This document shows, in pieces, positions 71 to 10,701 of a stretch of 26,194 nt of DNA. The translations under genes and the position numbers were made by a program. Numbering within the stretch: position 1 is the stretch's first letter; every line of letters begins with the position of its first letter. The stretch is from a virus. The notes beneath the pieces were generated by a model. The model did not search any database and had not been told where the DNA came from. It worked only from the letters and a program-made list of their open reading frames with translations. The stretch lies in UHGV virus genome UHGV-0110177; one strand, written 5' to 3'.

Positions 71-1357
71 TTAAATGACTTTTTTCATACTCCCTCGCCC
101 GTGGGGGCGTCCTGGGGGCAGTGCTGTCGGCATCTGATTGTTCAGCATGTTGACCTGTTCCTGGTTCATATCACCAATCCACTTGGAGTAAACCTCGTAT
201 ACCATCCGCGCATCTTCATGCCCCATCTGACTGGCTATGAATGACGGGTTCGCTCCGGCCATCAGCGTCCAGCAGGCATATGTGTGACGCGACTGATATG
301 GATTGCGCTCACGTATACCTGAAAGTTTAGTCCCACGCCTCCAGCCATACGAAATCGAGTCCTTGGAAAAGTAACCGCCTTTCGTTGACGAGTATGTTGT
401 CGGTGAAAAAACGAAGCGAAGATATTGCTGCTCAGTTTTTCCGATCTCACGATGATGAAACTGAATTTCCTGTTTTGGACTGTTACCGGTGATTTCGTAT
501 TGCTCCAGCAGAGCATCATGAGCAGGTTTCAGCAACGTTATCGTCCTTATCCCGGCATCTGTTTTAGGGGGTACAAATACTCGCTTGTTCGTCAAATTTC
601 TGGATACGTGGATTTCACCTTTTACCAAATCAATATCTTCCCATGCCAGTGCGCATATCTCGCCCGGCCTCATCCCTGTATGTACCGCAATAATGATGAT
701 TAATGCCTGGCTACGGGGAAGGGCGGCTATCAGTGCCTGGTACTCATGAAGTAAAAGTGGGTCGGGATCATTTTTAGATAACTTGAGTCTCGACACTCCT
801 TCATAAGGAGCATGCAATATAAACTGGCTTCGGTTTGCAAGCTTCAGCATTTCTGATAAAACAGCCATCTGTTTATTGACTGTTGAGGGCGCGCGCCCAT
901 TTTTGATGCGGTTTGGCATTGAAGGGTTGAAAACTTCCCCGGTCAGGAGTTCTTTGCGGTAATTCAGAATATCTGCGTGCTGAATATCAACCAGGCGTGT
1001 GTTCTCACCCACTACTCGTTTCAGGGTGTTAACGACTGATGTGATGGATAGCAAAGTGGCTTCAGATACCTCCAGTGACTTTGTATCTGTAAAAAAATCA
1101 CTCAGTTCTTTGAATGTGGAGATCCGTTTTGTGGACGAAAATTTCTTAAGAGCTTTTGATTCCGGGAAACGATCTGCGTAGTCGAACTTACCGAGTTGTA
1201 TCTCACTCACAATTGCCGCGCGCAGATTGCCCGCTTTTTTAATGTTGCTACTGTTGACAACCCAACCCTGGAGAACTTCGCGGCAACGAATGCCGCGATA
1301 GATAAATGTGATCCTGATTTTTCCGTTATGCAGTTCAACACCAGTCGGGTATTTCAT
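71..1357 (-). CDS. int: Tyrosine recombinase, phage integrase (428 aa)
   Basis: C-terminal catalytic region typical of lambda-family integrases (HTGMRPGE..., RHTYA...GHED...VY); ATG overlaps xis stop by 1 nt; first gene at prophage end. Confidence 0.9.
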   Translation of the reverse strand: MKYPTGVELHNGKIRITFIYRGIRCREVLQGWVVNSSNIKKAGNLRAAIVSEIQLGKFDYADRFPESKALKKFSSTKRISTFKELSDFFTDTKSLEVSEATLLSITSVVNTLKRVVGENTRLVDIQHADILNYRKELLTGEVFNPSMPNRIKNGRAPSTVNKQMAVLSEMLKLANRSQFILHAPYEGVSRLKLSKNDPDPLLLHEYQALIAALPRSQALIIIIAVHTGMRPGEICALAWEDIDLVKGEIHVSRNLTNKRVFVPPKTDAGIRTITLLKPAHDALLEQYEITGNSPKQEIQFHHREIGKTEQQYLRFVFSPTTYSSTKGGYFSKDSISYGWRRGTKLSGIRERNPYQSRHTYACWTLMAGANPSFIASQMGHEDARMVYEVYSKWIGDMNQEQVNMLNNQMPTALPPGRPHGRGSMKKVI

Positions 1358-1572
1358 TAAGCATCCTGAACTAACTGATTAATCTTCGGGTAGTTGTACC
1401 AAAGCAGACCTTTAGAGTTGTCAGTCTGTCCAAGCGCAGTAAGGCGCTTGAAGTGAACACCTTCAACCCATAGTTTCTGGCGATAATTTTTAATCTGTCC
1501 TTCAGTAAGCCCTGTTCTTTCGGTAAGTCTGGACTCAACAACCCACTCTTCGTTAAAAATTACCTGTGACAT
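1357..1572 (-). CDS. xis: Excisionase-like small DNA-binding protein (71 aa)
   Basis: Small basic protein immediately upstream of and overlapping int; SD GAGGTG 4-5 nt before ATG. Confidence 0.7.
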   Translation of the reverse strand: MSQVIFNEEWVVESRLTERTGLTEGQIKNYRQKLWVEGVHFKRLTALGQTDNSKGLLWYNYPKINQLVQDA

Positions 1573-2156: not shown

Positions 2157-2766
2157 GGTCACCCCCGTCGATCCGTCTGAATTCGATTACCCACACCCAG
2201 GGGTTAGCATCCCAATTTTCTTGCCCATAGATTGACTGCCAGAGGTAGGCGAAGACATCAGTTGCGTCTGGTTGTGGATTAACACAGCCGCATGGCTCAG
2301 GTTCCCCGCAATTCAGACAGCCACCGTCAATAATGCCTTCTGCTCGCGCATCCTCTTCGCTGATAGCGTTCAACCGCTCAACCCGCACGTCTGTAATTTC
2401 CAGAAGAATACGACTAGCCCAGCGCGGCATGTGAATTGATGGACGCCATCTTCCTTCTTCTGGCCAGTCTGTAGGGGGCGTAGCCCGGTAAGCCATATCG
2501 TGGCTATCCTGGTCGATGTTGTAGCGCGCCCACGTCTCACGCACCCAGATGCGATCGCCGACGGCGCCGAACGGACAATGGATTGCGATATCTTCAATTT
2601 TCGGCAACAACAGTCCGTTAAGAGGTCTGCTTAACCACTTACCGGATAAACTTCCGCTTAATGTTGCCTCTGGCTGCGGCTTGATGATTCGCCGCGTCTG
2701 CGTCTTCCGGCCGTCGAGAATGGCGCGCACCATCTCACCATTAAAAATCATTCCGCGCTCAGTCAT
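2146..2766 (-). CDS. Hypothetical phage protein with C-terminal Cys cluster (CLNCGEPEPCGC), 206 aa from ATG 2766
   Basis: Long ORF; chosen start gives ATGACTGA overlap with the stop of the upstream gene; longer start at 2826 would overlap that gene by 68 nt. Confidence 0.6.
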   Translation of the reverse strand: MTERGMIFNGEMVRAILDGRKTQTRRIIKPQPEATLSGSLSGKWLSRPLNGLLLPKIEDIAIHCPFGAVGDRIWVRETWARYNIDQDSHDMAYRATPPTDWPEEGRWRPSIHMPRWASRILLEITDVRVERLNAISEEDARAEGIIDGGCLNCGEPEPCGCVNPQPDATDVFAYLWQSIYGQENWDANPWVWVIEFRRIDGGDHAY

Positions 2767-3109
2767 TCCAGGCCTCCAGCTCGTTCTGAATCTCTTCGTC
2801 GATATCGTCATTGGTCGCATCTTCATTCAGGAAGTCGCGCGCTTCTTTGAGATATTTTCCCCGGCGCAAGCGATACCAGAGAGAGAGAGAGAACTCATAG
2901 CTCCAGCAGTTCGGCGCGCCGTCATAGTCAAATTTGGCGTTGTTCTCAGCCATGCTCTCAACCATGTTGTAAGCAGTGTTGAGCGCCGCTTCGCGGATAT
3001 ACCCGCGCAGATCACGCTTGCGCCAGTACGGGTTTACTTTCGAATCGCAGAGTGGTTTAAATTCGACTTCCCAGCGGCGAATGCAGCGTGCATTTAATGA
3101 TTTGCTCAT
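2759..3109 (-). CDS. Hypothetical phage protein (116 aa)
   Basis: ORF in early-left operon directly downstream of recT. Confidence 0.55.
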   Translation of the reverse strand: MSKSLNARCIRRWEVEFKPLCDSKVNPYWRKRDLRGYIREAALNTAYNMVESMAENNAKFDYDGAPNCWSYEFSLSLWYRLRRGKYLKEARDFLNEDATNDDIDEEIQNELEAWND

Positions 3110-3143
3110 GTCATTACCGGGAGGGCGAACCCTCCCGCCTCCC

Positions 3144-4145
3144 TTAGCCCACGTATTCCGGTTTCATGTCGTCCAGGGTGATGCGGAACTGGTCATACAG
3201 TTCGTCGCCTAAGTGCCGTTTCGCTGTGTGAAGAGTGCCTTCAGCTTTAGCAAACAGTTCCGCCGCTTCTGGTTCTCCGGGATTCGACAGGGAGTTGATA
3301 GCGGCCTCAACTTTATTTTTGGCGTCAACAAGGTAGTAGCGCTTCACCGCTTTATTTTTCAGCTCAGTGAACAGCGCAGTTCCCAGCAACGCTTTCTGCG
3401 ACTCAATATCAGCGCGGATAGCTTTGGCCTGGTCAACAGAGCTTGCTGTGTCAATGCGGTCGCGTAGGTCGTCGGCAACGGCATCAACGTTAGTTGCTGA
3501 TTCCTGCGCGGTAGCGAGGATGCCTGTTTCGCTGGTGATCTCTTCAACAGTCATTCGCGGGGTTGGATTTATTTCGCGCTCAACGCGTTCCTCCAACTCA
3601 TCAGGGGTGTAGACCCCCAAAATCGCCCATGGTGTGTAGGCACGAGCCCAGTATTTCACTTGCAAGTAGCCAATTTGCTGCTTTGGGTTACTTTTCCACA
3701 GGGGCGAGTTTTTGATTGTTACTTCCGAAACGCAGAGCCATTCATTCCATGTAATGTCTTTTTCTCCGCTAATAATTGCGCCAACACGGCACTCCATCAG
3801 ATCCTTTTCGCCACGATATTCATAATGGAATCGCCCCCGTATTGCGCCGGTGGCAGTCAGTACCGCGCTAACTAACTGAGCTTCATATCCTAGAGTGCCA
3901 TTTATAACGTGTGTTTTCTGACCGACTACGTAGGGGTCCATACCCCATCGCGCGGCTTGCATGACAATGGCGAGGCAGTCTGATGGCTTACCCTGAAGAT
4001 GTTTGGGCACAGTAGAAATACCCTGGGACATAACATCAGCAATCTTCATCATGCGATCCATGACATCGCCATTCAGCAGTAACGAGCCATTATTCATTGT
4101 GCTGGGTGCCTGCTGATCAATTACCGCTATGTTTCTATTTTCCAT
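3144..4145 (-). CDS. recT: RecT/Bet(Red-beta)-family single-strand annealing protein (333 aa)
   Basis: Recalled similarity to lambda Bet/RecT core (PLWKSNPKQ...VKYWARAY compared with GPWQSHPKR...CARLA); start is 13 nt after recE stop with SD AAGGGGGAA; classic exonuclease-annealase pair. Confidence 0.65.
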   Translation of the reverse strand: MENRNIAVIDQQAPSTMNNGSLLLNGDVMDRMMKIADVMSQGISTVPKHLQGKPSDCLAIVMQAARWGMDPYVVGQKTHVINGTLGYEAQLVSAVLTATGAIRGRFHYEYRGEKDLMECRVGAIISGEKDITWNEWLCVSEVTIKNSPLWKSNPKQQIGYLQVKYWARAYTPWAILGVYTPDELEERVEREINPTPRMTVEEITSETGILATAQESATNVDAVADDLRDRIDTASSVDQAKAIRADIESQKALLGTALFTELKNKAVKRYYLVDAKNKVEAAINSLSNPGEPEAAELFAKAEGTLHTAKRHLGDELYDQFRITLDDMKPEYVG

Positions 4146-4157
4146 GACTGTTCCCCC

Positions 4158-7049
4158 TTATGCCTGTACGCGCAGCGCTTCAAGGCGGCGCACATCAAAA
4201 TCGTTGAGTTCTTCGGCGTAATCTTCGGTAATCGGCGCTGGCCATTCGCCAGTGTCGAATCCGTTCGCGATGGCGCGCATTGCTTTGCGGTATTCCAGCA
4301 TGCCGAGTTCAAGCAGTTCTTCGGATGCCTCGATGATGGCGATCCAGTGGTAGTTCTCGTCTTTGTTGACGAATATCCAGAAAAACTGGTCCAGCGCTGC
4401 GGTTTCGCAGTACATGGCAGCGCTCAGGTGATAATCGCGATCGATGATTTCCCGGTGCAACTTCGCGCGCAGACCTTCCTGCTTGATATTCCACATGCTG
4501 ATAGTCTTCAGGTCAGCGCCGATGCGCAGGCCGCCCATGTCAATTTCAAGGTCAGGGCGCACGCGGATTTCCAGCCCGGTTTCCTCATCAATACCGAAAT
4601 AGCTCACCTCTACGGCGCGGTTCGGATGCGTCAGCAGCTTCCCGGCGGTCGGGTGATTCAGCAGCGCTTTCTGGATGGCCTGCGCGGTGCTCAACTGCTG
4701 GCGGGTAACCAGAATTTTATCGCCGGGGTTTTCGCGCCATGCGTCAAGCAGCTCGTCGGCAAACACTGTTTCAGGTTTGACGGATTTCACTGCCTGAATC
4801 AGATCCGCTTTGGTGCCGGATACTTTCAACGGCTGTGGCTTCTGTGCTTCCTGTGCAACGAGATCAGGATTGATGATCGCCAGTTGCTCAAGCAGCGCGT
4901 CACGGCTTCCGCTGGTTTTAACCGGCGCGGGCAGGGTGGCGTTGTATTCTTTGATGCAGGCCTTCATTGCCGCTGCTGTATGCTTAGTCCCGTTTTCGAT
5001 GCGCTGGAACTCTTCAGGCAATAGCTCATATGACGCATACGCTTCGTCGACGGATGCCCCAAGCGGTAATGGCGCGGGCAGGGTGGCGTTGTACTCTTCC
5101 AGCAACGCTTTGATATCGTCTGCGGTGAGTAATGCCGGCAGGCTGGCGTTGTGTTCGTCGATAACCGCGCGGATCGTCGCTGTCGTCGTGAGCGCGCCTT
5201 CCGAGATTTCCGGTTCGATGCTGAACTCTTTTTCCAGTTGTTCAGGCTGTAACGCCAGCGCGTGCACCAGGTTCCCCATATCCAGAACTTTGGTGCGTTC
5301 TTTCTGGATGGTTTTGGATACGTGGCGCGCTTCGAAATACATCAGACTTACACGTGCATCTTTGACCATTGTCGAACTGATGCCATTCGCCGCGTGATAT
5401 ACCTCGTTCGGTACGCCTTCATAACGCCCCGGCTCGAAGTATTCCGGCCACACTGACGCTGGCTCTGGTTCTTCCTGTTGCATTTCCGGCACGTTTTGTT
5501 GCGTTTCTGGCTCAGAATGGCTTGCAGAATCGTTGTTCTGGCTCACTTCCGGCTGATGGTGGTCTACATCGGCTTGCTCGCCGGTATCTGCCTCTTCACC
5601 ATTCCCCAAATCACTTTCGCTTGCGAGCAGCGCATCACCAGTCTGTTCTTCATTACCGTCAGTTTCTTGAACCTGCACATCGGCGGCGTCCTCATTTTCC
5701 GTTTTTTCTCCCTCATTTGAGGCGGCGTTGTAGTCTTCATGAACCCACTTCGGATCGTTAGGGTCACTGATACCTTCAACGTAATCACCGCGCGCAGCTG
5801 CGAGTTGTCGGTTTACTTCTTCAACGGATGGTTCATCCTGTCTTACTGGCGTTGGCATAGGCATGGACGAACGTCCGCAGGCAATATCAACGACAAGCGG
5901 ATCGGGATTGGCGTGGTCAGTTTCTGTCAGCACCTTATTCAGGTACTCGCGGTGGCGAAACGGGGATTTGTATAGTTCATCTGGTGTGGTTTTTACTGTT
6001 GCAACGATGCATGCGCGGGAATAGTCCAGACCACCAGGCATTGACACGAACAGTTCGCGCGTTGCCAGCCACTCAGGGTCGTCAACTGCGTTCATGATTG
6101 AGTTAGCCTTTAGTTCGATCTGCAATGGCAGAGAATAAATATCAAATTCGTACTGACGCGCCAGCAGGCCTAAGGCTATTTCAAATTCAAGACCGAGAGT
6201 GGTCTGGGGCATCTTGCGATCGGATGCAATTCCGCCGCCAGCGTTCGCGCCGCTTTCAGTACGCTGAATAGCTGATACACGATTACCTTTGCACCACTCT
6301 TTAACGAGCAACCCGCGATCAATATGAGGGGTATCGAACCATGTTTTCAGAAACTGGATAACGCTTGCCAGCTCAGGGATTTTGCCATCAGCAGGAAACA
6401 CGTTCTTAACGGCATTTACCGCTTTATGGATATCGTGTTCAATGGCCTTTTTGAATGGTTCAACATTCTCAGCCGCAAGTAAAATGTTCTGGACATATGA
6501 GTTATCAGTGTCCATTTCCAGAGCGAGAATTGCTTTTTTCTGCTCTGCATCGACATGATAGAGATACTCGCCATCGCCAATATGTTGGGCCAGTATGCGA
6601 TGACGGAAGGGCATCGTTGCCACAACGGTTAACTGAGGGTGTTCAGGTAGATCGCCATTGTCTTCAGTTGACGCCTGATCGTGCTGGATAATTTCGCCAG
6701 TTTCGGTATCAACACCATCAACGATACGCTGACGGGCGACGGCAACGGCCTCAGAAGAGGGCAGCGTAACACCGGGGATCTGTACCCAGGTCATGTTGTC
6801 TTTGCCGAGCTGGTAGAAATCGCAGAACGTTAAGCTGAGTTCGCCTTCCGGCGGCAGTTCGTTAACGACAGGGAAATTAGTGGCGACAGCTTTAAAATAA
6901 TCTTTCAGCTTTGCGCCGGATTTAATCAGGAGATAATCCAGTGTGGCATTTGCCGATTCAAAATCATCACTGCACCAGAGAACCGCATCTTTTTGTCCTG
7001 ATGATTTTTTTGCTTTGCGGACTAAAAATACAGGATTAGTTCCACTCAT
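4158..7049 (-). CDS. recE: Exodeoxyribonuclease VIII (RecE-like), 963 aa
   Basis: N-terminus from ATG at 7049 (MSGTNPVFLVRKAKKSSG...VLWCSDDFES...DYLLIKSG...KAVATNFPVVN) matches E. coli RecE N-terminus from memory; conserved LNKVLTETDHANPDP...DIACGRSS block; SD GAGGAT upstream; the ORF-track start at 7259 is a 70-codon over-extension. Confidence 0.85.
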   Translation of the reverse strand: MSGTNPVFLVRKAKKSSGQKDAVLWCSDDFESANATLDYLLIKSGAKLKDYFKAVATNFPVVNELPPEGELSLTFCDFYQLGKDNMTWVQIPGVTLPSSEAVAVARQRIVDGVDTETGEIIQHDQASTEDNGDLPEHPQLTVVATMPFRHRILAQHIGDGEYLYHVDAEQKKAILALEMDTDNSYVQNILLAAENVEPFKKAIEHDIHKAVNAVKNVFPADGKIPELASVIQFLKTWFDTPHIDRGLLVKEWCKGNRVSAIQRTESGANAGGGIASDRKMPQTTLGLEFEIALGLLARQYEFDIYSLPLQIELKANSIMNAVDDPEWLATRELFVSMPGGLDYSRACIVATVKTTPDELYKSPFRHREYLNKVLTETDHANPDPLVVDIACGRSSMPMPTPVRQDEPSVEEVNRQLAAARGDYVEGISDPNDPKWVHEDYNAASNEGEKTENEDAADVQVQETDGNEEQTGDALLASESDLGNGEEADTGEQADVDHHQPEVSQNNDSASHSEPETQQNVPEMQQEEPEPASVWPEYFEPGRYEGVPNEVYHAANGISSTMVKDARVSLMYFEARHVSKTIQKERTKVLDMGNLVHALALQPEQLEKEFSIEPEISEGALTTTATIRAVIDEHNASLPALLTADDIKALLEEYNATLPAPLPLGASVDEAYASYELLPEEFQRIENGTKHTAAAMKACIKEYNATLPAPVKTSGSRDALLEQLAIINPDLVAQEAQKPQPLKVSGTKADLIQAVKSVKPETVFADELLDAWRENPGDKILVTRQQLSTAQAIQKALLNHPTAGKLLTHPNRAVEVSYFGIDEETGLEIRVRPDLEIDMGGLRIGADLKTISMWNIKQEGLRAKLHREIIDRDYHLSAAMYCETAALDQFFWIFVNKDENYHWIAIIEASEELLELGMLEYRKAMRAIANGFDTGEWPAPITEDYAEELNDFDVRRLEALRVQA

Positions 7050-7176
7050 TGTTTTATCCTCACTTCGTGTAGAATGGAGGCGCCTTAATGGCACCTCGGT
7101 TTTACCAAGTAGAATGTCCGGTTCGCTTTGGTCGGTTAGACCGGACAGGGCAAGCCCACCTCGTGTGGGCTTTTGC

Positions 7177-7464
7177 TTAATGAACGGTGCTGAAAACTTT
7201 TTCTGAGTAATCGAGTTTGTAGCTGCGGTAGTTGCCAAACCCGGCGTTATCGCCATCACTTACTTTCACGGACAACATTGAAATTGCCTCTACAGCACAA
7301 AGAGGACAGTCGAACTTGCCGAATACATAGCCACCGTCAAGAATGACCGTGACCGCGCCCGTTTCGGCTGAATGAATAACGCCTGATACTTTCTTCTCGC
7401 AGTTGAATACAGCCAATTCTTTATTCACTGCTTTCAGGTTCATTTCGATTTTTACGATTTCCAT
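7177..7464 (-). CDS. Hypothetical phage protein (95 aa)
   Basis: ORF in early-left operon. Confidence 0.5.
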   Translation of the reverse strand: MEIVKIEMNLKAVNKELAVFNCEKKVSGVIHSAETGAVTVILDGGYVFGKFDCPLCAVEAISMLSVKVSDGDNAGFGNYRSYKLDYSEKVFSTVH

Positions 7465-7905: not shown

Positions 7906-8029
7906 TTGCTGGTTTCCTTTTTGGTGATACAACCTTTCATGACACACCAAAAAAATCGAAATGGCGCTGTAAAAGCATTCCCTCGAACGGCCTGGATGCG
8001 TGCTGGCTGACGTGCGAAATCAATCATTT

Positions 8030-8254
8030 TCATCCTCTGCGATGACTGTTTTTAATTTCATTCCAGTACTGAAAAGTGCACGGAATGTTTGCATCCAGGA
8101 CTGCCTGCGTGGCCGCAATGATGTTCGCATGCCAGGTTACGCAGACCGTTGCTCGCATCTGCATATAACGCAGTGACGGATCTGCCTTACTCATCAACAT
8201 CCCAGCGCGTGCTGCATCCTGAGAATTGTCAAAGCTAAAAATAACCTCACTCAT
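8030..8254 (-). CDS. Hypothetical protein, first gene of leftward early operon (74 aa)
   Basis: SD AGAGGGA upstream of ATG 8254; ~150 nt leader from candidate pL. Confidence 0.55.
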   Translation of the reverse strand: MSEVIFSFDNSQDAARAGMLMSKADPSLRYMQMRATVCVTWHANIIAATQAVLDANIPCTFQYWNEIKNSHRRG

Positions 8255-8405
8255 GATTTATCCCTCTGCTTGCCGTTGTCGCCCGGCTGGCGGAACGTTT
8301 GATACCTGCTGCGCGTTAACTCATCCACCTCATCACCATCTTCATACGCCTGGTGCGGCTACATTCGTGGGCGTCCTGCCTGGGTGGTCGTGTTGCTGTG
8401 AATTT

Positions 8406-8472
8406 ATATTAAGCCTTAGACTTAACTAGTGTCAAGCTCAGGACTGAATTCATAGTTAAGTTTTAGGCTTAT
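8406..8472. promoter_or_regulatory. OL-like operator/promoter unit: 17-bp palindromes TTAAGCCTTAGACTTAA (8409-8425) and TTAAGTTTTAGGCTTAT (8456-8472); leftward promoter -35 TTGACA (8435..8430) and -10 TAATAT (8411..8406)
   Basis: Palindromes share the half-site TAAG/CTTA with the two sites between repressor and cro; good sigma70 hexamers on minus strand with 18-bp spacer. Confidence 0.6.
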
Positions 8473-8538
8473 TTTTTTGACGAATGTATGGGAGTAGAGG
8501 ATGCTTATGCTCACAAAAACGCCAAAGAGGATGGGTAT

Positions 8539-8742
8539 ATGTCAAACGATGATGAGTTTTTCGCGGAGATGCATCCGCAGATAGCGCAGGTGATCGGTAT
8601 GGCTGTGATGCAGATTCTGGTTGAAGGGCGTGAGATCACAAAGGCAGAAATAATCGAGACGATTCAGGTTCTGTGGCAGGAGGAGCAGGTTGATCTTGCT
8701 GTTGAGTTAGCGCTGGATGTACTAATGCTGCCAAAAGAATAG
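8539..8742 (+). CDS. Small acidic hypothetical protein (67 aa) transcribed rightward from the OL-like region
   Basis: ATG 8539 with SD GAGGA; reading frame continues from the track ORF 8488..8742. Confidence 0.5.
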   Translation: MSNDDEFFAEMHPQIAQVIGMAVMQILVEGREITKAEIIETIQVLWQEEQVDLAVELALDVLMLPKE

Positions 8743-8745
8743 GGC

Positions 8746-8780
8746 AAAAAAAAAGCCCGGAACGTGTCGTAATCCGGGCT
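8746..8780 (-). terminator. Rho-independent terminator for minus-strand transcription (8-bp stem AGCCCGGA/TCCGGGCT, then U9 on the minus strand)
   Basis: Perfect stem plus A9 run on plus strand read directly. Confidence 0.7.
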
Positions 8781-8888
8781 GTAAGTCGGATATATGGTGC
8801 TGTTATTTCTTGTTCATGCACCATAACAGAGCTCGTCTGACCGGAGTGTGTTGTCGCGCATGTTTCAGGGAAAAGACCCCTGCAAAAT

Positions 8889-8966
8889 TCACCAGGCCAG
8901 CATAACCAGTGAAATCGCGGCGACCATAACAACAGTTACCAAGCATACTATCAGATACTCTCTCAT
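8889..8966 (-). CDS. Candidate 25-aa hydrophobic peptide (MREYLIVCLVTVVMVAAISLVMLAW)
   Basis: Only coherent small ORF in a ~300-bp unit bounded by two minus-strand terminators; weak SD; speculative. Confidence 0.25.
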   Translation of the reverse strand: MREYLIVCLVTVVMVAAISLVMLAW

Positions 8967-9093
8967 TATTTTCCAACTGATTATTTGCATCATATATCAA
9001 CAAGGATAGCCTGATTAAGTAGATGTAGCGTGCATGGCTACGAAACAGGCAAGGGTGCAAAGAGGGATGCTGCGGAGTTCGTGAGGAAAGGGC

Positions 9094-9120
9094 AATAAAA
9101 ACCCGGCGTGGTGTCCGGGT
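9094..9120 (-). terminator. Rho-independent terminator ending the repressor operon (stem ACCCGG/CCGGGT, then UUUUUAUU on the minus strand)
   Basis: Hairpin and T-run located 8 nt after the stop of the 118-aa gene. Confidence 0.7.
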
Positions 9121-9127
9121 CGAAGAG

Positions 9128-9484
9128 TTATTTTAGAACAAGTCCATTAAGAGCATCCAGAATTTTTGAAACGTAATTCCCAAAAATATAAGCACAGAAA
9201 GCAAAAATGATGCTCACTACAGCAGCCGATGCTTTTATGGTTGTTTTGGCGGAGCCAATGCCTGTCTCTATTGCCGCTAACCTTGAATCGATTGACTTTA
9301 TGTCAGATTTTACTTCAGCGATATCGCGCTTAATGTATTCAACATCTGACTCAAGCTTTGCAACTCTTGCCTGCATGTCACCACCCCCACCAGAACCATC
9401 ACCGTCTTTGAAGTTAGTATGGGGGGTTACAGCTCTATTTTCAACTGGCGCTTTCGCGGGGTTAAAACTATAAACTTGCCCCAT
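9128..9484 (-). CDS. Tail-anchored membrane protein: Gly-rich linker, coiled coil, C-terminal TM helix (118 aa; alternative ATG at 9376 gives 82 aa)
   Basis: ORF co-transcribed downstream of repressor; ~42% GC versus ~52% in core genes; C-terminal hydrophobic segment AAVVSIIFAFCAYIFGNYV. Confidence 0.6.
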   Translation of the reverse strand: MGQVYSFNPAKAPVENRAVTPHTNFKDGDGSGGGGDMQARVAKLESDVEYIKRDIAEVKSDIKSIDSRLAAIETGIGSAKTTIKASAAVVSIIFAFCAYIFGNYVSKILDALNGLVLK

Positions 9485-9920
9485 TTACGGCATCTCCGGT
9501 GTGATGAATTACATGAAAATAACAGCTATGGCTGTCGATTATTTCGCTTGTCTTATTACCATGTTCATCATTTTTGAAGTTTGTAATTTTGGCTTCATAA
9601 AGCCCCTCTTTACTGAGGTCTACATCGCTGACAAACATAGATGAAATGTAACAAACGTGATCGCTTTCAATGAAGTTGATTGATGATGTTTCAAAATAAC
9701 CATCATCATCATGCATAATGATTACTGTATGATTATTAAATAGAATATCTATTTCAGTGCGTACAAGATGATTTACAGGGACAGAAAAGCCTATAGTGAT
9801 AATCACTGTCTGCAACTCATTTGTAGGAGAGGGGGATAGCATCGGCATGGGCTGATACCACTTAAGCCCCTTTATTCCATCTTTCTGTAATGTGGGATAA
9901 GCAAACAGAATTTTATTCAC
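9468..9920 (-). CDS. AT-rich hypothetical protein (150 aa, GTG start)
   Basis: GTG at 9920 with SD AAGGAAG 8 nt upstream; ~37% GC; sits between repressor and membrane protein. Confidence 0.55.
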   Translation of the reverse strand: MNKILFAYPTLQKDGIKGLKWYQPMPMLSPSPTNELQTVIITIGFSVPVNHLVRTEIDILFNNHTVIIMHDDDGYFETSSINFIESDHVCYISSMFVSDVDLSKEGLYEAKITNFKNDEHGNKTSEIIDSHSCYFHVIHHTGDAVNGASL

Positions 9921-9977
9921 TTGATTGCTTCCTTAACACTTAAAATGTGCCACTAGAGCATGATTTTCAAAAAACGG

Positions 9978-10364
9978 CTATTCTCCGTCACCCTTAATCC
10001 GCCGCCCCATGTACTTGGCGTACAGCTCGTCGAGTTCCTTAAGGCGCAGAGACACGATCCGCAACATGTTCTGCTGCTCTTCTTCCGGCAACTGGCGATA
10101 GAGCTCGAGTAGGCGCTGTTCGTCAGGCTTAAGACCGTCCTTCTCTCCAACATCCTCACCAAGTAGCCAGGGAACTGATACGCCAGCAGCATCTGCAACC
10201 GCTAATGCAGAACTTTTGCTAATAACACCTTTTTTGAACCAGCCGTTTACGGATTGCGGGGTAATCCCCGCAACCCTTGCCATATCAGATTTTGTCATCC
10301 CTCGTTGCGTCAGTTCTGTCAAACGCTCGATGAGAATCGGGTTAAGTATTTTTTTCTCAGCCAT
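9978..10364 (-). CDS. Prophage repressor, HTH (XRE-type), 128 aa, no recognisable LexA-like S24 cleavage domain
   Basis: HTH motif MTKSDMARVAGITPQSVNGWFKKG; divergent from cro-like gene across the operator region; short C-terminal helical domain only. Confidence 0.8.
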   Translation of the reverse strand: MAEKKILNPILIERLTELTQRGMTKSDMARVAGITPQSVNGWFKKGVISKSSALAVADAAGVSVPWLLGEDVGEKDGLKPDEQRLLELYRQLPEEEQQNMLRIVSLRLKELDELYAKYMGRRIKGDGE

Positions 10365-10373
10365 ATCAGAAGA

Positions 10374-10441
10374 ATAAGCCTTTTGCTTATAAATTAAAAT
10401 TCGCTCAGGACTTGATCTTTTGTTAAGTCTGAGGCTTAATT
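10374..10441. promoter_or_regulatory. OR-like operator/promoter unit: palindromes ATAAGCCTTTTGCTTAT (10374-10390) and TTAAGTCTGAGGCTTAA (10423-10439); rightward promoter -35 TTGATC (10412-10417), -10 TTAATT (10436-10441)
   Basis: Inverted repeats read directly; placed between divergent repressor and cro-like genes; cro SD GGAGA follows. Confidence 0.65.
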
Positions 10442-10467
10442 TATTTGTGAATCTAGTGGAGATACTC

Positions 10468-10701
10468 ATGAACGGATTAGAAAAGGCCATTCAGAAAGCT
10501 GGCACTGCCAGCAACTTAGCCGCAAAGCTAGGCATTAAACCGATGTCGGTTAGTCGCTGGAAAACACGATACAAGGGCGTCGTGCCAGCCGATCGTGTTT
10601 TACCAATTTTCAACGCAACTGGTGTTACCCCCCATGAATTGCGCCCTGATCTGTATCCGAACCCCACGGACGGATTACCAGCGCAGGATGCGAGGGCGTA
10701 A
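10468..10701 (+). CDS. Cro/YdaS-like HTH protein (77 aa)
   Basis: HTH (ASNLAAKLGIKPMSVSRWK); first gene rightward of operators; SD GGAGA. Confidence 0.75.
   Translation: MNGLEKAIQKAGTASNLAAKLGIKPMSVSRWKTRYKGVVPADRVLPIFNATGVTPHELRPDLYPNPTDGLPAQDARA

Follow-up and report, generated by a model that had tools for sequence, protein, structure and literature searches.

In phage lambda, the rexA and rexB genes lie downstream of cI and belong to the repressor (pRM) operon. The moron concept, which is said to go back to Juhala, Hendrix and colleagues, describes an extra gene that has its own terminator and is inserted between conserved lambdoid genes. Small membrane proteins of less than 50 aa, such as KdpF, MgtS, AcrZ and YohP, have been described in bacteria, and in the type I systems of Bacillus prophages the convergent transcripts overlap at their 3' ends. 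Prophages are also rich in sRNA genes (PMC4104026). The anti-sRNAs of the AgvB type, with a length of 51-60 nt, are located 3' of PR' in the late region, outside the immunity region (PMC4104026), and the Pas sRNA preprint describes sRNAs in late and structural gene neighbourhoods.

The window analysed here, a stretch of 26,194 nucleotides representing the virus genome UHGV-0110177, is according to its gene content a Rac-like lambdoid prophage (Table 1). Behind its repressor operon, two terminators named T1 and T2 enclose a gap with an ORF of 25 codons. We consider it moderately probable that this ORF is a genuine unannotated gene, encoding a 25-residue membrane peptide with a single helix, and that it belongs to a repressor-linked family from which the window copy was displaced on a mosaic module. 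The setting of the gap can be judged from related phages. The convergent ORF of the phrog_3946 type adjoins the operon terminator directly in MG40 and in most of 80 related viral loci, and in RAH1 a terminator spacer of 50 nt and a 40-aa ORF are found between the convergent ORF and the first sizeable operon gene. The position of the convergent 67-aa ORF marks the normal partner of the repressor/moron operon terminator in related phages, and the window differs at this joint by an extra 315 bp.

Table 1. Features of the window around the inter-terminator gap and in the surrounding prophage
Feature	Coordinates	Strand	Remarks
RecE-type exonuclease gene	4158-7259	minus	
YdaE-like and DUF1482 genes		minus	
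Strong pL-like promoter	8435..8406		TTGACA-18-TAATAT; PWM score 12.9 (control site)
Convergent 67-aa ORF (phrog_3946)	8539..8742	plus	PHROGs E 6e-33; outside the module
T2, strong intrinsic terminator	8746-8780	minus	stem of 7-8 bp G+C, nine U
3' tail of the ORF, 108 nt	8781..8888	minus	two hairpins and a CA-rich stretch
Type D ORF, 25 codons and TGA	8889..8966	minus	MREYLIVCLVTVVMVAAISLVMLAW; supported by sequence, hydrophobicity, homologues and coding signature
69 nt of unplaced origin	8967..9035	minus	upstream of the ORF
Gene-fragment scar, about 60 nt	9036..9098	plus	last 20 codons and stop, GYETGKGAKRDAAEFVRKGQ*
T1, intrinsic terminator	9092..9121 (hairpin 9121..9100)	minus	terminator scan: 7 pairs, 5 of them G-C
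150-aa gene, then 118-aa XhlA-like gene, then T1		minus	3' of the repressor
HTH repressor	9978-10490 (ORF as listed)	minus	called as 127-128 aa on identical contigs
YdaS/YdaT-like genes		plus	divergent from the HTH repressor

The initial annotation had placed two minus-strand terminators about 315 bp apart, and both hairpins were confirmed by scan or fold together with their U-tails. In the terminator scan, the T1 hairpin is followed on the minus strand by TTTTTATT, and it folds at -11.7 kcal/mol (z -2.8) with UUUUUAUU after it. The stem of T2, GCCCGGA / TCCGGGC, occupies 8755-8779 and precedes nine U on the minus strand at 8746-8754. Its fold of -15.7 kcal/mol (z -5.6) was equalled in stability by none of 200 shuffles, and it was absent from the terminator scan only because its loop of 11 nt exceeds the scan maximum of 8. 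On the plus strand, no U-run follows the hairpin of T1 or that of T2, and both are therefore mainly terminators of the minus strand. T1 is the end of the minus-strand operon of the repressor, the 150-aa gene and the 118-aa (XhlA-like) gene, as well as the upstream edge of the mosaic module. T2 is the downstream edge and lies 4 nt past the stop of the convergent plus-strand ORF. A leader peptide or attenuator was rejected on the grounds that the gene beyond T2 is convergent and no same-strand gene is found there.

In line with the initial annotation, no gene is called between T1 and T2 on the four contigs that are 100% identical in this gap (L004-L007). In L017/L018, gene callers give a 108-aa ORF in another frame that runs across T1, and this call looks spurious. 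Among the contigs that share the 118-aa gene, two classes can be distinguished, those with a 100% identical gap (L004-L007) and those from which the module is absent (L003 and L008). In the latter, homology to the window ends at about 9089 and a convergent ORF stands directly after T1. The module comprises 386 bp (9120-8735) and consists of T1, the 60-nt scar, 69 nt, the ORF, the 108-nt tail and T2. In the viral contig L010, 9120-8735 is present at 96% identity, with 15 substitutions across the module and other genes on both flanks, and L017/L018 carry the module in a third combination of neighbours. The unit therefore spans T1 through T2. T2 is common to the window and L010 despite different convergent ORFs beyond it, and the homology stops at GCCCTATTCTT. 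The module is rare, since in the viral, genome, metagenome, E. coli, phage and plasmid collections it was found only in the window type, L010 and L017/L018. As in a moron, this module is discrete, bounded by terminators and found in three contexts, being present or absent among syntenic phages with sharp edges (L003/L008 compared with L010/L017), and it has a terminator of its own in T2 (-15.7 kcal/mol and nine U). It differs from a moron in that it is without a convincing promoter of its own and in that part of it is not a clean cassette but a scar left by a destroyed gene.

This scar is the C-terminus of a convergent small-ORF family of 65-68 aa, which is intact in other elements; the rest of the gene is missing here. 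Searches by tblastn with the intact 65-aa (L016) and 68-aa (L015) proteins gave E values of 1.5e-6 and 8.6e-5, the match being limited to the C-termini. In E. coli and in plasmids and phages of Enterobacter, the blastn matches end within the scar stretch, and T1 together with the scar gave 138 matches among the other fetched prophage loci. Since the scar is widespread in company with T1 and represents a truncated gene end, part of the 315-bp gap between the terminators is therefore a recombination scar. The spacing of the terminators had been read as a sign of a separate unit; with 60 nt of scar at T1, it is largely explained by mosaic recombination.

The remaining 255 bp of the module (9035-8781) had no counterpart elsewhere at the DNA level. 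Positions 8781-9035 were unmatched by megablast and blastn in 5,426 E. coli genomes, 50,697 phage records and 72,556 plasmids, and the same DNA searches matched only the flanks and the stretch of T1 plus scar. By sensitive blastn, no sequence similar to 8967-9035 was found in any other fetched locus, and the 3' tail had no relatives in all fetched loci beyond near-identical copies. Two of the 15 substitutions of L010 fall in 8967-9035, both at the end proximal to T1, and an A to G change is additionally present there in L017/L018; the 3' tail has 3 substitutions compared with L010. When all neighbouring repressor and moron proteins were used as tblastn queries, nothing was obtained for 9035-8967 or 8888-8781. 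Wobble-tolerant pattern scans of the genome and metagenome contig collections returned only chance matches without homology (L011-L014).

The 25-codon hydrophobic ORF was found exactly as first described. Its product has a short polar N-terminus, M-R-E-Y, followed by one predicted transmembrane helix. The Kyte-Doolittle mean over 19 aa is 3.04, a value that none of 2000 dinucleotide-preserving shuffles and none of the other 314-nt tiles in the window attains. Ahead of the ATG there is only a weak Shine-Dalgarno sequence, GGA at a distance of 8 nt. If translation began at the in-frame ATGATG (8993/8990), the product would have 34 or 33 aa. The 34-aa version is disfavoured, as the ATGATG is without a Shine-Dalgarno sequence and the homologues begin at M-[RSK]-E. 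Moreover, each of the three changes in the 9 codons of the extension (I4M, K8E and M10I) alters the amino acid, as for non-coding sequence. In the L010 allele the ATG is changed to ATA without an adjacent GTG, and this allele may be dead, impaired or starting elsewhere.

Homologues of the peptide were found in several steps. Inspection of the sequence beyond the convergent ORF in 80 related viral loci revealed in L059 a 25-codon ORF, MSEYLINALVTLIAVIAIALLVFHW, which is 52% identical to the window peptide, equal in length and shares the terminal W-stop. By tblastn over all loci, MKEHFFNGLVALISVMAISLLIFHW was found in L065, and MREYLIVGVVTLLSVVAIVLMVA in L064, L020 and an Enterobacter plasmid. 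An unannotated ORF of phage phi80, located between cI and gene 40A, encodes the last of these peptides with 100% identity, and phi80, L064, L020 and L016 share the form (V)[MI]REYLIVGVVTLLSVVAIVLMVA. The phi80-type ORF exists in 64 of the 5,426 complete E. coli genomes, and no annotated feature lies under any of the 40 matches listed, many of these matches being in phi80-derived laboratory strains that are in common use for cloning; an example of the phi80 remnant is NZ_CP025520.1 128303-128383 (minus strand). With a degenerate DNA pattern derived from the four types, 60 viral contigs were obtained, each with a family ORF of 23-25 codons, and no chance matches. Other tiny hydrophobic ORFs were seen beside the family ORF in L059, L065 and L020.

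The family was defined by 23-25 codons, the N-terminus M-[RKS]-E-[YH]-[LF]-[IF] and one hydrophobic helix reaching to the C-terminus. The window peptide has this N-terminal motif and helix and aligns over its full length with type A (14/23 identical), type C (13/25) and type B (10/25); its own type, type D, consists of three near-identical variants only. The homologues are 40-60% identical, have the same length and keep the positions of start and stop. Conservation of the ORF, a point on which the initial annotation would have allowed itself to be contradicted, is thus documented by diverged homologues in 60 viral contigs and in phi80. All family ORFs inspected, including that of phi80, are unannotated. 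NCBIfam, Pfam and PHROGs searches gave no family match at E up to 10 beyond noise, the exact peptide sequences are absent from a collection of 15 billion proteins, and a literature search on the peptide strings and on small proteins downstream of cI found nothing relevant.

The family frame is the sole frame that is open in all four diverged types. The earlier statement that it is the only coherent frame is an overstatement for the window, which has further open frames, among them one of 85 aa with a TTG start and one of 53 aa on the plus strand. The 85-aa frame was rejected as a gene; it is closed in type C, and the one relative found for it is this very locus, wrongly called as a gene of 108 aa across T1. 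In the family alignment, the variable columns are distributed over codon positions 1/2/3 as 17/6/20 (p 0.02) and the pooled pairwise differences as 26/8/31 (p 0.001), which are modest statistics from 25 codons and four types. The T at codon position 2 is kept, as expected of a peptide selected to stay hydrophobic. The dN/dS is 0.3-0.5 (0.5 or lower), or dS is saturated, and the single indel in the alignment is one whole codon and in frame. Within type A, leaving aside codon 1, four sites vary synonymously and a single one conservatively (M to I, codon 21). These patterns indicate selection on the translated hydrophobic peptide at the level of the family. Together with the shared length, start and stop of the homologues, the conservation of codon position 2 agrees with the small membrane peptide of the initial annotation, and the view that the window ORF is a genuine conserved coding sequence for such a peptide is supported by these comparisons.

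The DNA of the type A cassette is nearly invariant between two variable flanks, with direct repeats of the cI 3' end on either side. Because of these features, recent spread as a recombination linker could account for part of the conservation of type A. It is highly improbable that the cassette as a whole is a conserved DNA linker, that is, a homology block for recombination in the immunity region with the open frame as a by-product. The peptides of types B, C and D differ by 40-50%, yet length, start, stop and the T at codon position 2 are kept and no other frame stays open, whereas a recombination linker needs identity and not a frame.

The members of the family other than the window copy occupy a characteristic position. 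They start at the stop of a LexA/cI-type repressor gene or, usually, 23-81 nt after it on the same strand, and in eight loci 234-267 nt after it. Among the 54 viral-contig and phi80 loci of types A-C with an upstream gene present, the gap to this gene is -1 to 81 nt in 46. The family therefore belongs to the lysogenic repressor operon. The cassette is found 3' of at least 6 different LexA/cI-type repressor alleles and 5' of at least 15 different downstream genes; judged from these arrangements, it is, within the lysogenic operon, the element that stays constant where a variable repressor meets variable morons. In some loci the cassette abuts the repressor gene and the start of the ORF shares nucleotides with the repressor stop (GTGA / TGATG), an arrangement that points to translational coupling with the repressor gene there. 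Many type A copies have ATA in place of ATG and a GTG one codon upstream, and where the cassette abuts, this GTG overlaps the repressor stop. Elsewhere the cassette is preceded by a leader resembling the cI 3' end, in some cases with a Shine-Dalgarno-like GAGGTG motif. The phi80 copy stands between direct repeats of a lambda-cI-like 3' end, 'WPEETFG*'. Its GTG/ATG comes after the repeat that is found shortly past the phi80 cI stop.

Like rexA-rexB, the family directly follows a cI/LexA-type repressor gene in the same orientation, and its expression in the lysogen is expected. Its product is also predicted to be membrane-embedded, as is RexB, from which it differs in having 23-25 residues, one helix and no sequence similarity. 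The window copy does not share the position of its relatives. It is found 1 kb downstream of the repressor gene, past two genes, T1 and the gene scar, and so differs from rexA-rexB in being parted from the repressor operon by two genes and a terminator. With KdpF, MgtS, AcrZ and YohP, the window peptide has in common its size, one transmembrane helix behind a short polar N-terminus, and the fact of being missed by gene callers. It has no homology to these proteins, is phage-borne and is without a known partner protein.

The position of the relatives also bears on the type I toxin that the initial annotation had considered. With 25 aa and a mean hydropathy of 3.04 over 19 aa, the window product is a small hydrophobic peptide, similar in size and composition to Ibs-, ShoB- and Fst-like toxins, and as in Ibs, ShoB, Ldr, TisB and Hok, a short and very hydrophobic ORF is placed on a short terminator-bounded stretch. 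A membrane-depolarising toxin could be paired with an antisense RNA, for example one arising from plus-strand read-through across T2, which is a poor terminator in the plus direction (no plus-strand U-tail), and the convergent overlap at the 3' ends would be laid out as in the Bacillus prophage systems. Such a toxin-antitoxin system is nevertheless very improbable. NCBIfam, Pfam and PHROGs gave no toxin family match, the families unmatched by the window peptide being Hok, Ldr, Ibs, ShoB, TisB, Zor, DinQ, Fst and others. Neither an antitoxin RNA signal nor a promoter in antisense orientation that exceeds background was found in the interval, the best plus-strand promoter-like site having a score of 8.8 that is reached by 13% of random pieces. 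Most relatives lie directly 3' of the repressor with same-strand genes within tens of nt downstream, a tight layout in which an antitoxin would find no space and from which constitutive expression in lysogens is to be expected. These relatives, which differ from the known toxins in their place in the repressor operon, appear to share a transcript with the repressor gene and, in some loci, to be coupled to it in translation.

In the window, a sigma-70 scan of the interval found no site with 9 of 12 matches. The best site upstream of the ORF is TTAATC (9018-9013), an 18-nt spacer and TATGAT (8994-8989) on the minus strand. Its PWM score of 7.5 is reached by 29% of random 185-nt pieces; the matrix was built from approximate frequencies and scores the sigma-70 consensus only. 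The separate short transcript put forward in the initial annotation is accordingly not supported, with no sigma-70 promoter above background between T1 and the ORF. Because such a promoter is absent and T1 stands between the ORF and the repressor operon, the window copy may be silent.

A silent copy would be in keeping with a relic, in which case the family is real, the window copy is an unexpressed remnant of illegitimate recombination inside the convergent gene, and the layout of terminator, gap and terminator is a recombination scar without a transcription unit. The truncated gene end of 60 nt beside T1, the lack of a promoter above background, the weak Shine-Dalgarno sequence, the loss of the ATG in the L010 allele and the rarity of the module in the collections searched all agree with this. 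However, the 25-codon core is intact in three variants and, besides the start change of L010, has only one more change, a synonymous one, unlike the 9 codons directly upstream with their 3 non-synonymous changes. The module also retains a strong terminator of its own and was moved as a unit into three contexts. A relic is consequently regarded as rather unlikely, and the window ORF as a displaced but genuine gene is preferred.

The region downstream of the ORF could suggest an RNA as the product. The 3' tail contains a small hairpin at about 8882-8866, the CA-rich GACAACACAC at about 8857-8848 and a second, imperfect hairpin. The sequence 8891-8746 folds at -39.9 kcal/mol and better than shuffles (z -2.75), in part owing to T2. 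An sRNA or dual-function RNA would be a minus-strand RNA of about 200-240 nt that ends at T2, with the ORF incidental or secondary, for example an Hfq-binding regulator or a sponge acting via the CA-rich GACAACACAC. The long U-tail of T2, preceded by hairpins and single-stranded A/C-rich sequence, would suit this role. In a permissive Rfam 15 scan of 8000-10000, only sub-threshold matches aligned mainly to the terminator were obtained, with AgvB at 19 bits and a toxic sRNA family at 23 bits, far under the gathering thresholds of 56 and 50 bits. AgvB/AsxR (RF02702; PMC4104026) shares with the window a prophage-borne position, a strong terminator at the end and the weak Rfam alignment, and differs in its length of 51-60 nt and its place 3' of PR' in the late region. 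This late-region location led to the rejection of an AgvB identity. Mimicry of GcvB via the CA-rich motif depends on an 8-nt complement that is within chance by our own estimate. Relatives exist for the ORF and, beyond near-identical copies, none for the 3' tail, and the substitutions in the family show codon periodicity and no structural pattern. The sRNA that the initial annotation had offered as an equal choice is thus not borne out, with no Rfam family at threshold and no wider conservation of the tail, and is considered improbable.

The preferred reading, a displaced member of a membrane peptide family, can be given a possible course of events. The relatives would be transcribed together with the repressor in the lysogen. 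In a Rac-like prophage, the type D copy would have been displaced onto the 386-bp module with its own strong terminator T2. The window ORF would then be expressed by read-through of T1, from the weak TTAATC-18-TATGAT promoter or by both, with transcription ending at T2; another sigma factor would be an alternative route. The peptide would insert into the inner membrane of the lysogen and could serve as a lysogenic-conversion factor, most plausibly in the exclusion of or defence against other phages or in modulating a host membrane protein. We infer this function of a lysogen-expressed inner-membrane micro-protein by position only, because of the analogy with other repressor-operon genes such as lambda rexB.

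For the window itself, the seemingly empty gap of 315 bp has become a defined mosaic module, and terminators and gene 3' ends act as recombination joints in prophage immunity regions. The lambda-like immunity region is among the best-studied DNA, yet a conserved micro-ORF after the repressor is unannotated in phi80, and no curated protein family or searchable paper with the family peptide was found. It can tentatively be proposed, at less than even confidence, that these ORFs represent a new class of transmembrane micro-proteins at the repressor 3' end, expressed in lysogens and taking part in immunity, exclusion or physiology, and that the module of the window is a free-standing mobile version. 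If this is true, the class, with its 23-25 residues, would exist in many lambda-like prophages and in phi80, and hence also in the phi80 remnants of DH5alpha and DH10B. Provided that the peptide is produced, lysogens would express a new membrane factor, and phi80 offers a direct way to test what it contributes to exclusion, defence or lysogen fitness.

The table displays the related loci (L020, L059, L065, L017, L018 and phage phi80) together with the features of the window. In L020, the fragment that follows the type A cassette codes for the C-terminal end of a repressor of the window's type (9978-10490); repressor-gene 3' ends are thus shown to be used as recombination joints. A GGGCAA(T/A)AAAAA(G)CCCGG ... 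CCGGG frame is common to the terminators at 8746-8780 and 9092-9121 in the window and at 2633-2665 in L002, another locus, and the homology between mosaic partners starts or stops inside these same terminators. The shared frame and the position of the homology edges therefore suggest that modules are shuffled with the terminators as recombination joints.

Features of the window and of related loci
Locus	Position	Strand	Feature	Remarks
L020	about 4050-4105	-	fragment encoding ELYAKYMGRRIKGDGE and stop	downstream of peptide stop, after type A cassette
L020	just downstream of 4106	-	tiny hydrophobic ORF MRIGIAFPASVFIIAVAFLAWFILGGYATPGT	
L059	within 3063-3328	-	tiny hydrophobic ORF MVHNLIIWAISASALVTFVYLNVIG	AGGAGG Shine-Dalgarno sequence
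L059	within 3063-3328	-	29-aa ORF	second tandem companion of family member
L065	about 4380-4676	-	tiny hydrophobic ORFs MRSLIFVLALIVIVAGICVFMLQDNTLKGFSAW and MVRKYLVVIIAAILVALIVWQWVLDLG	
L099 (phi80, NC_021190)	2501-2569, within 2477-2588		23-codon ORF MREYLIVGVVTLLSVVAIVLMVA	unannotated; between cI and gene 40A
L017 / L018	4001-4327 / 1092-1418		108-aa called gene (protein P0001)	ENA assemblies
Window	8406-8435	-	strong sigma-70-like promoter	TTGACA-18-TAATAT, 10/12 matches
Window	about 8848-8857	-	CA-rich stretch GACAACACAC	single-stranded part of 3' tail
Window	within 9128-9920	-	118-aa protein	coiled-coil and transmembrane; weak XhlA (haemolysin/holin-like) match, phrog_6136

The phi80 copy of the family ORF is flanked by the direct repeats GTGGCCTGAAGAGACGTTTGGGTGAT and GTGGCCTGATGAGACGTTTTGGTGA, both of which look like the lambda cI 3' end ('WPEETFG*'). 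The 81 bp of this cassette recur in 64 complete E. coli genomes; none of the 40 E. coli matches listed, DH5alpha and DH10B included, carries an annotated feature under them. No database protein other than P0001 covers the inter-terminator interval. Its frame spans the terminator T1 and is closed in other family types, and the gene is probably a spurious call.

Two genes separate the repressor gene from T1 in the window. No family match was found for the 150-aa product of the one, encoded within 9128-9920 (-) like its 118-aa neighbor, and in other prophages a 302-306-aa gene replaces the pair at the same position. Both genes look like lysogenic-conversion morons. Within the 3' tail, 8 nt of the CA-rich stretch would be complementary to the GU-rich R1 region of GcvB, a match within chance expectation. 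The sigma-70-like promoter, probably pL, precedes the kil-like early-left genes and points away from the beginning of the 67-aa plus-strand ORF.

Additional tiny hydrophobic ORFs occur in tandem with a family member, inside the repressor operon, in L059, L065, and L020. Micro transmembrane ORFs appear to recur across these prophage immunity regions.
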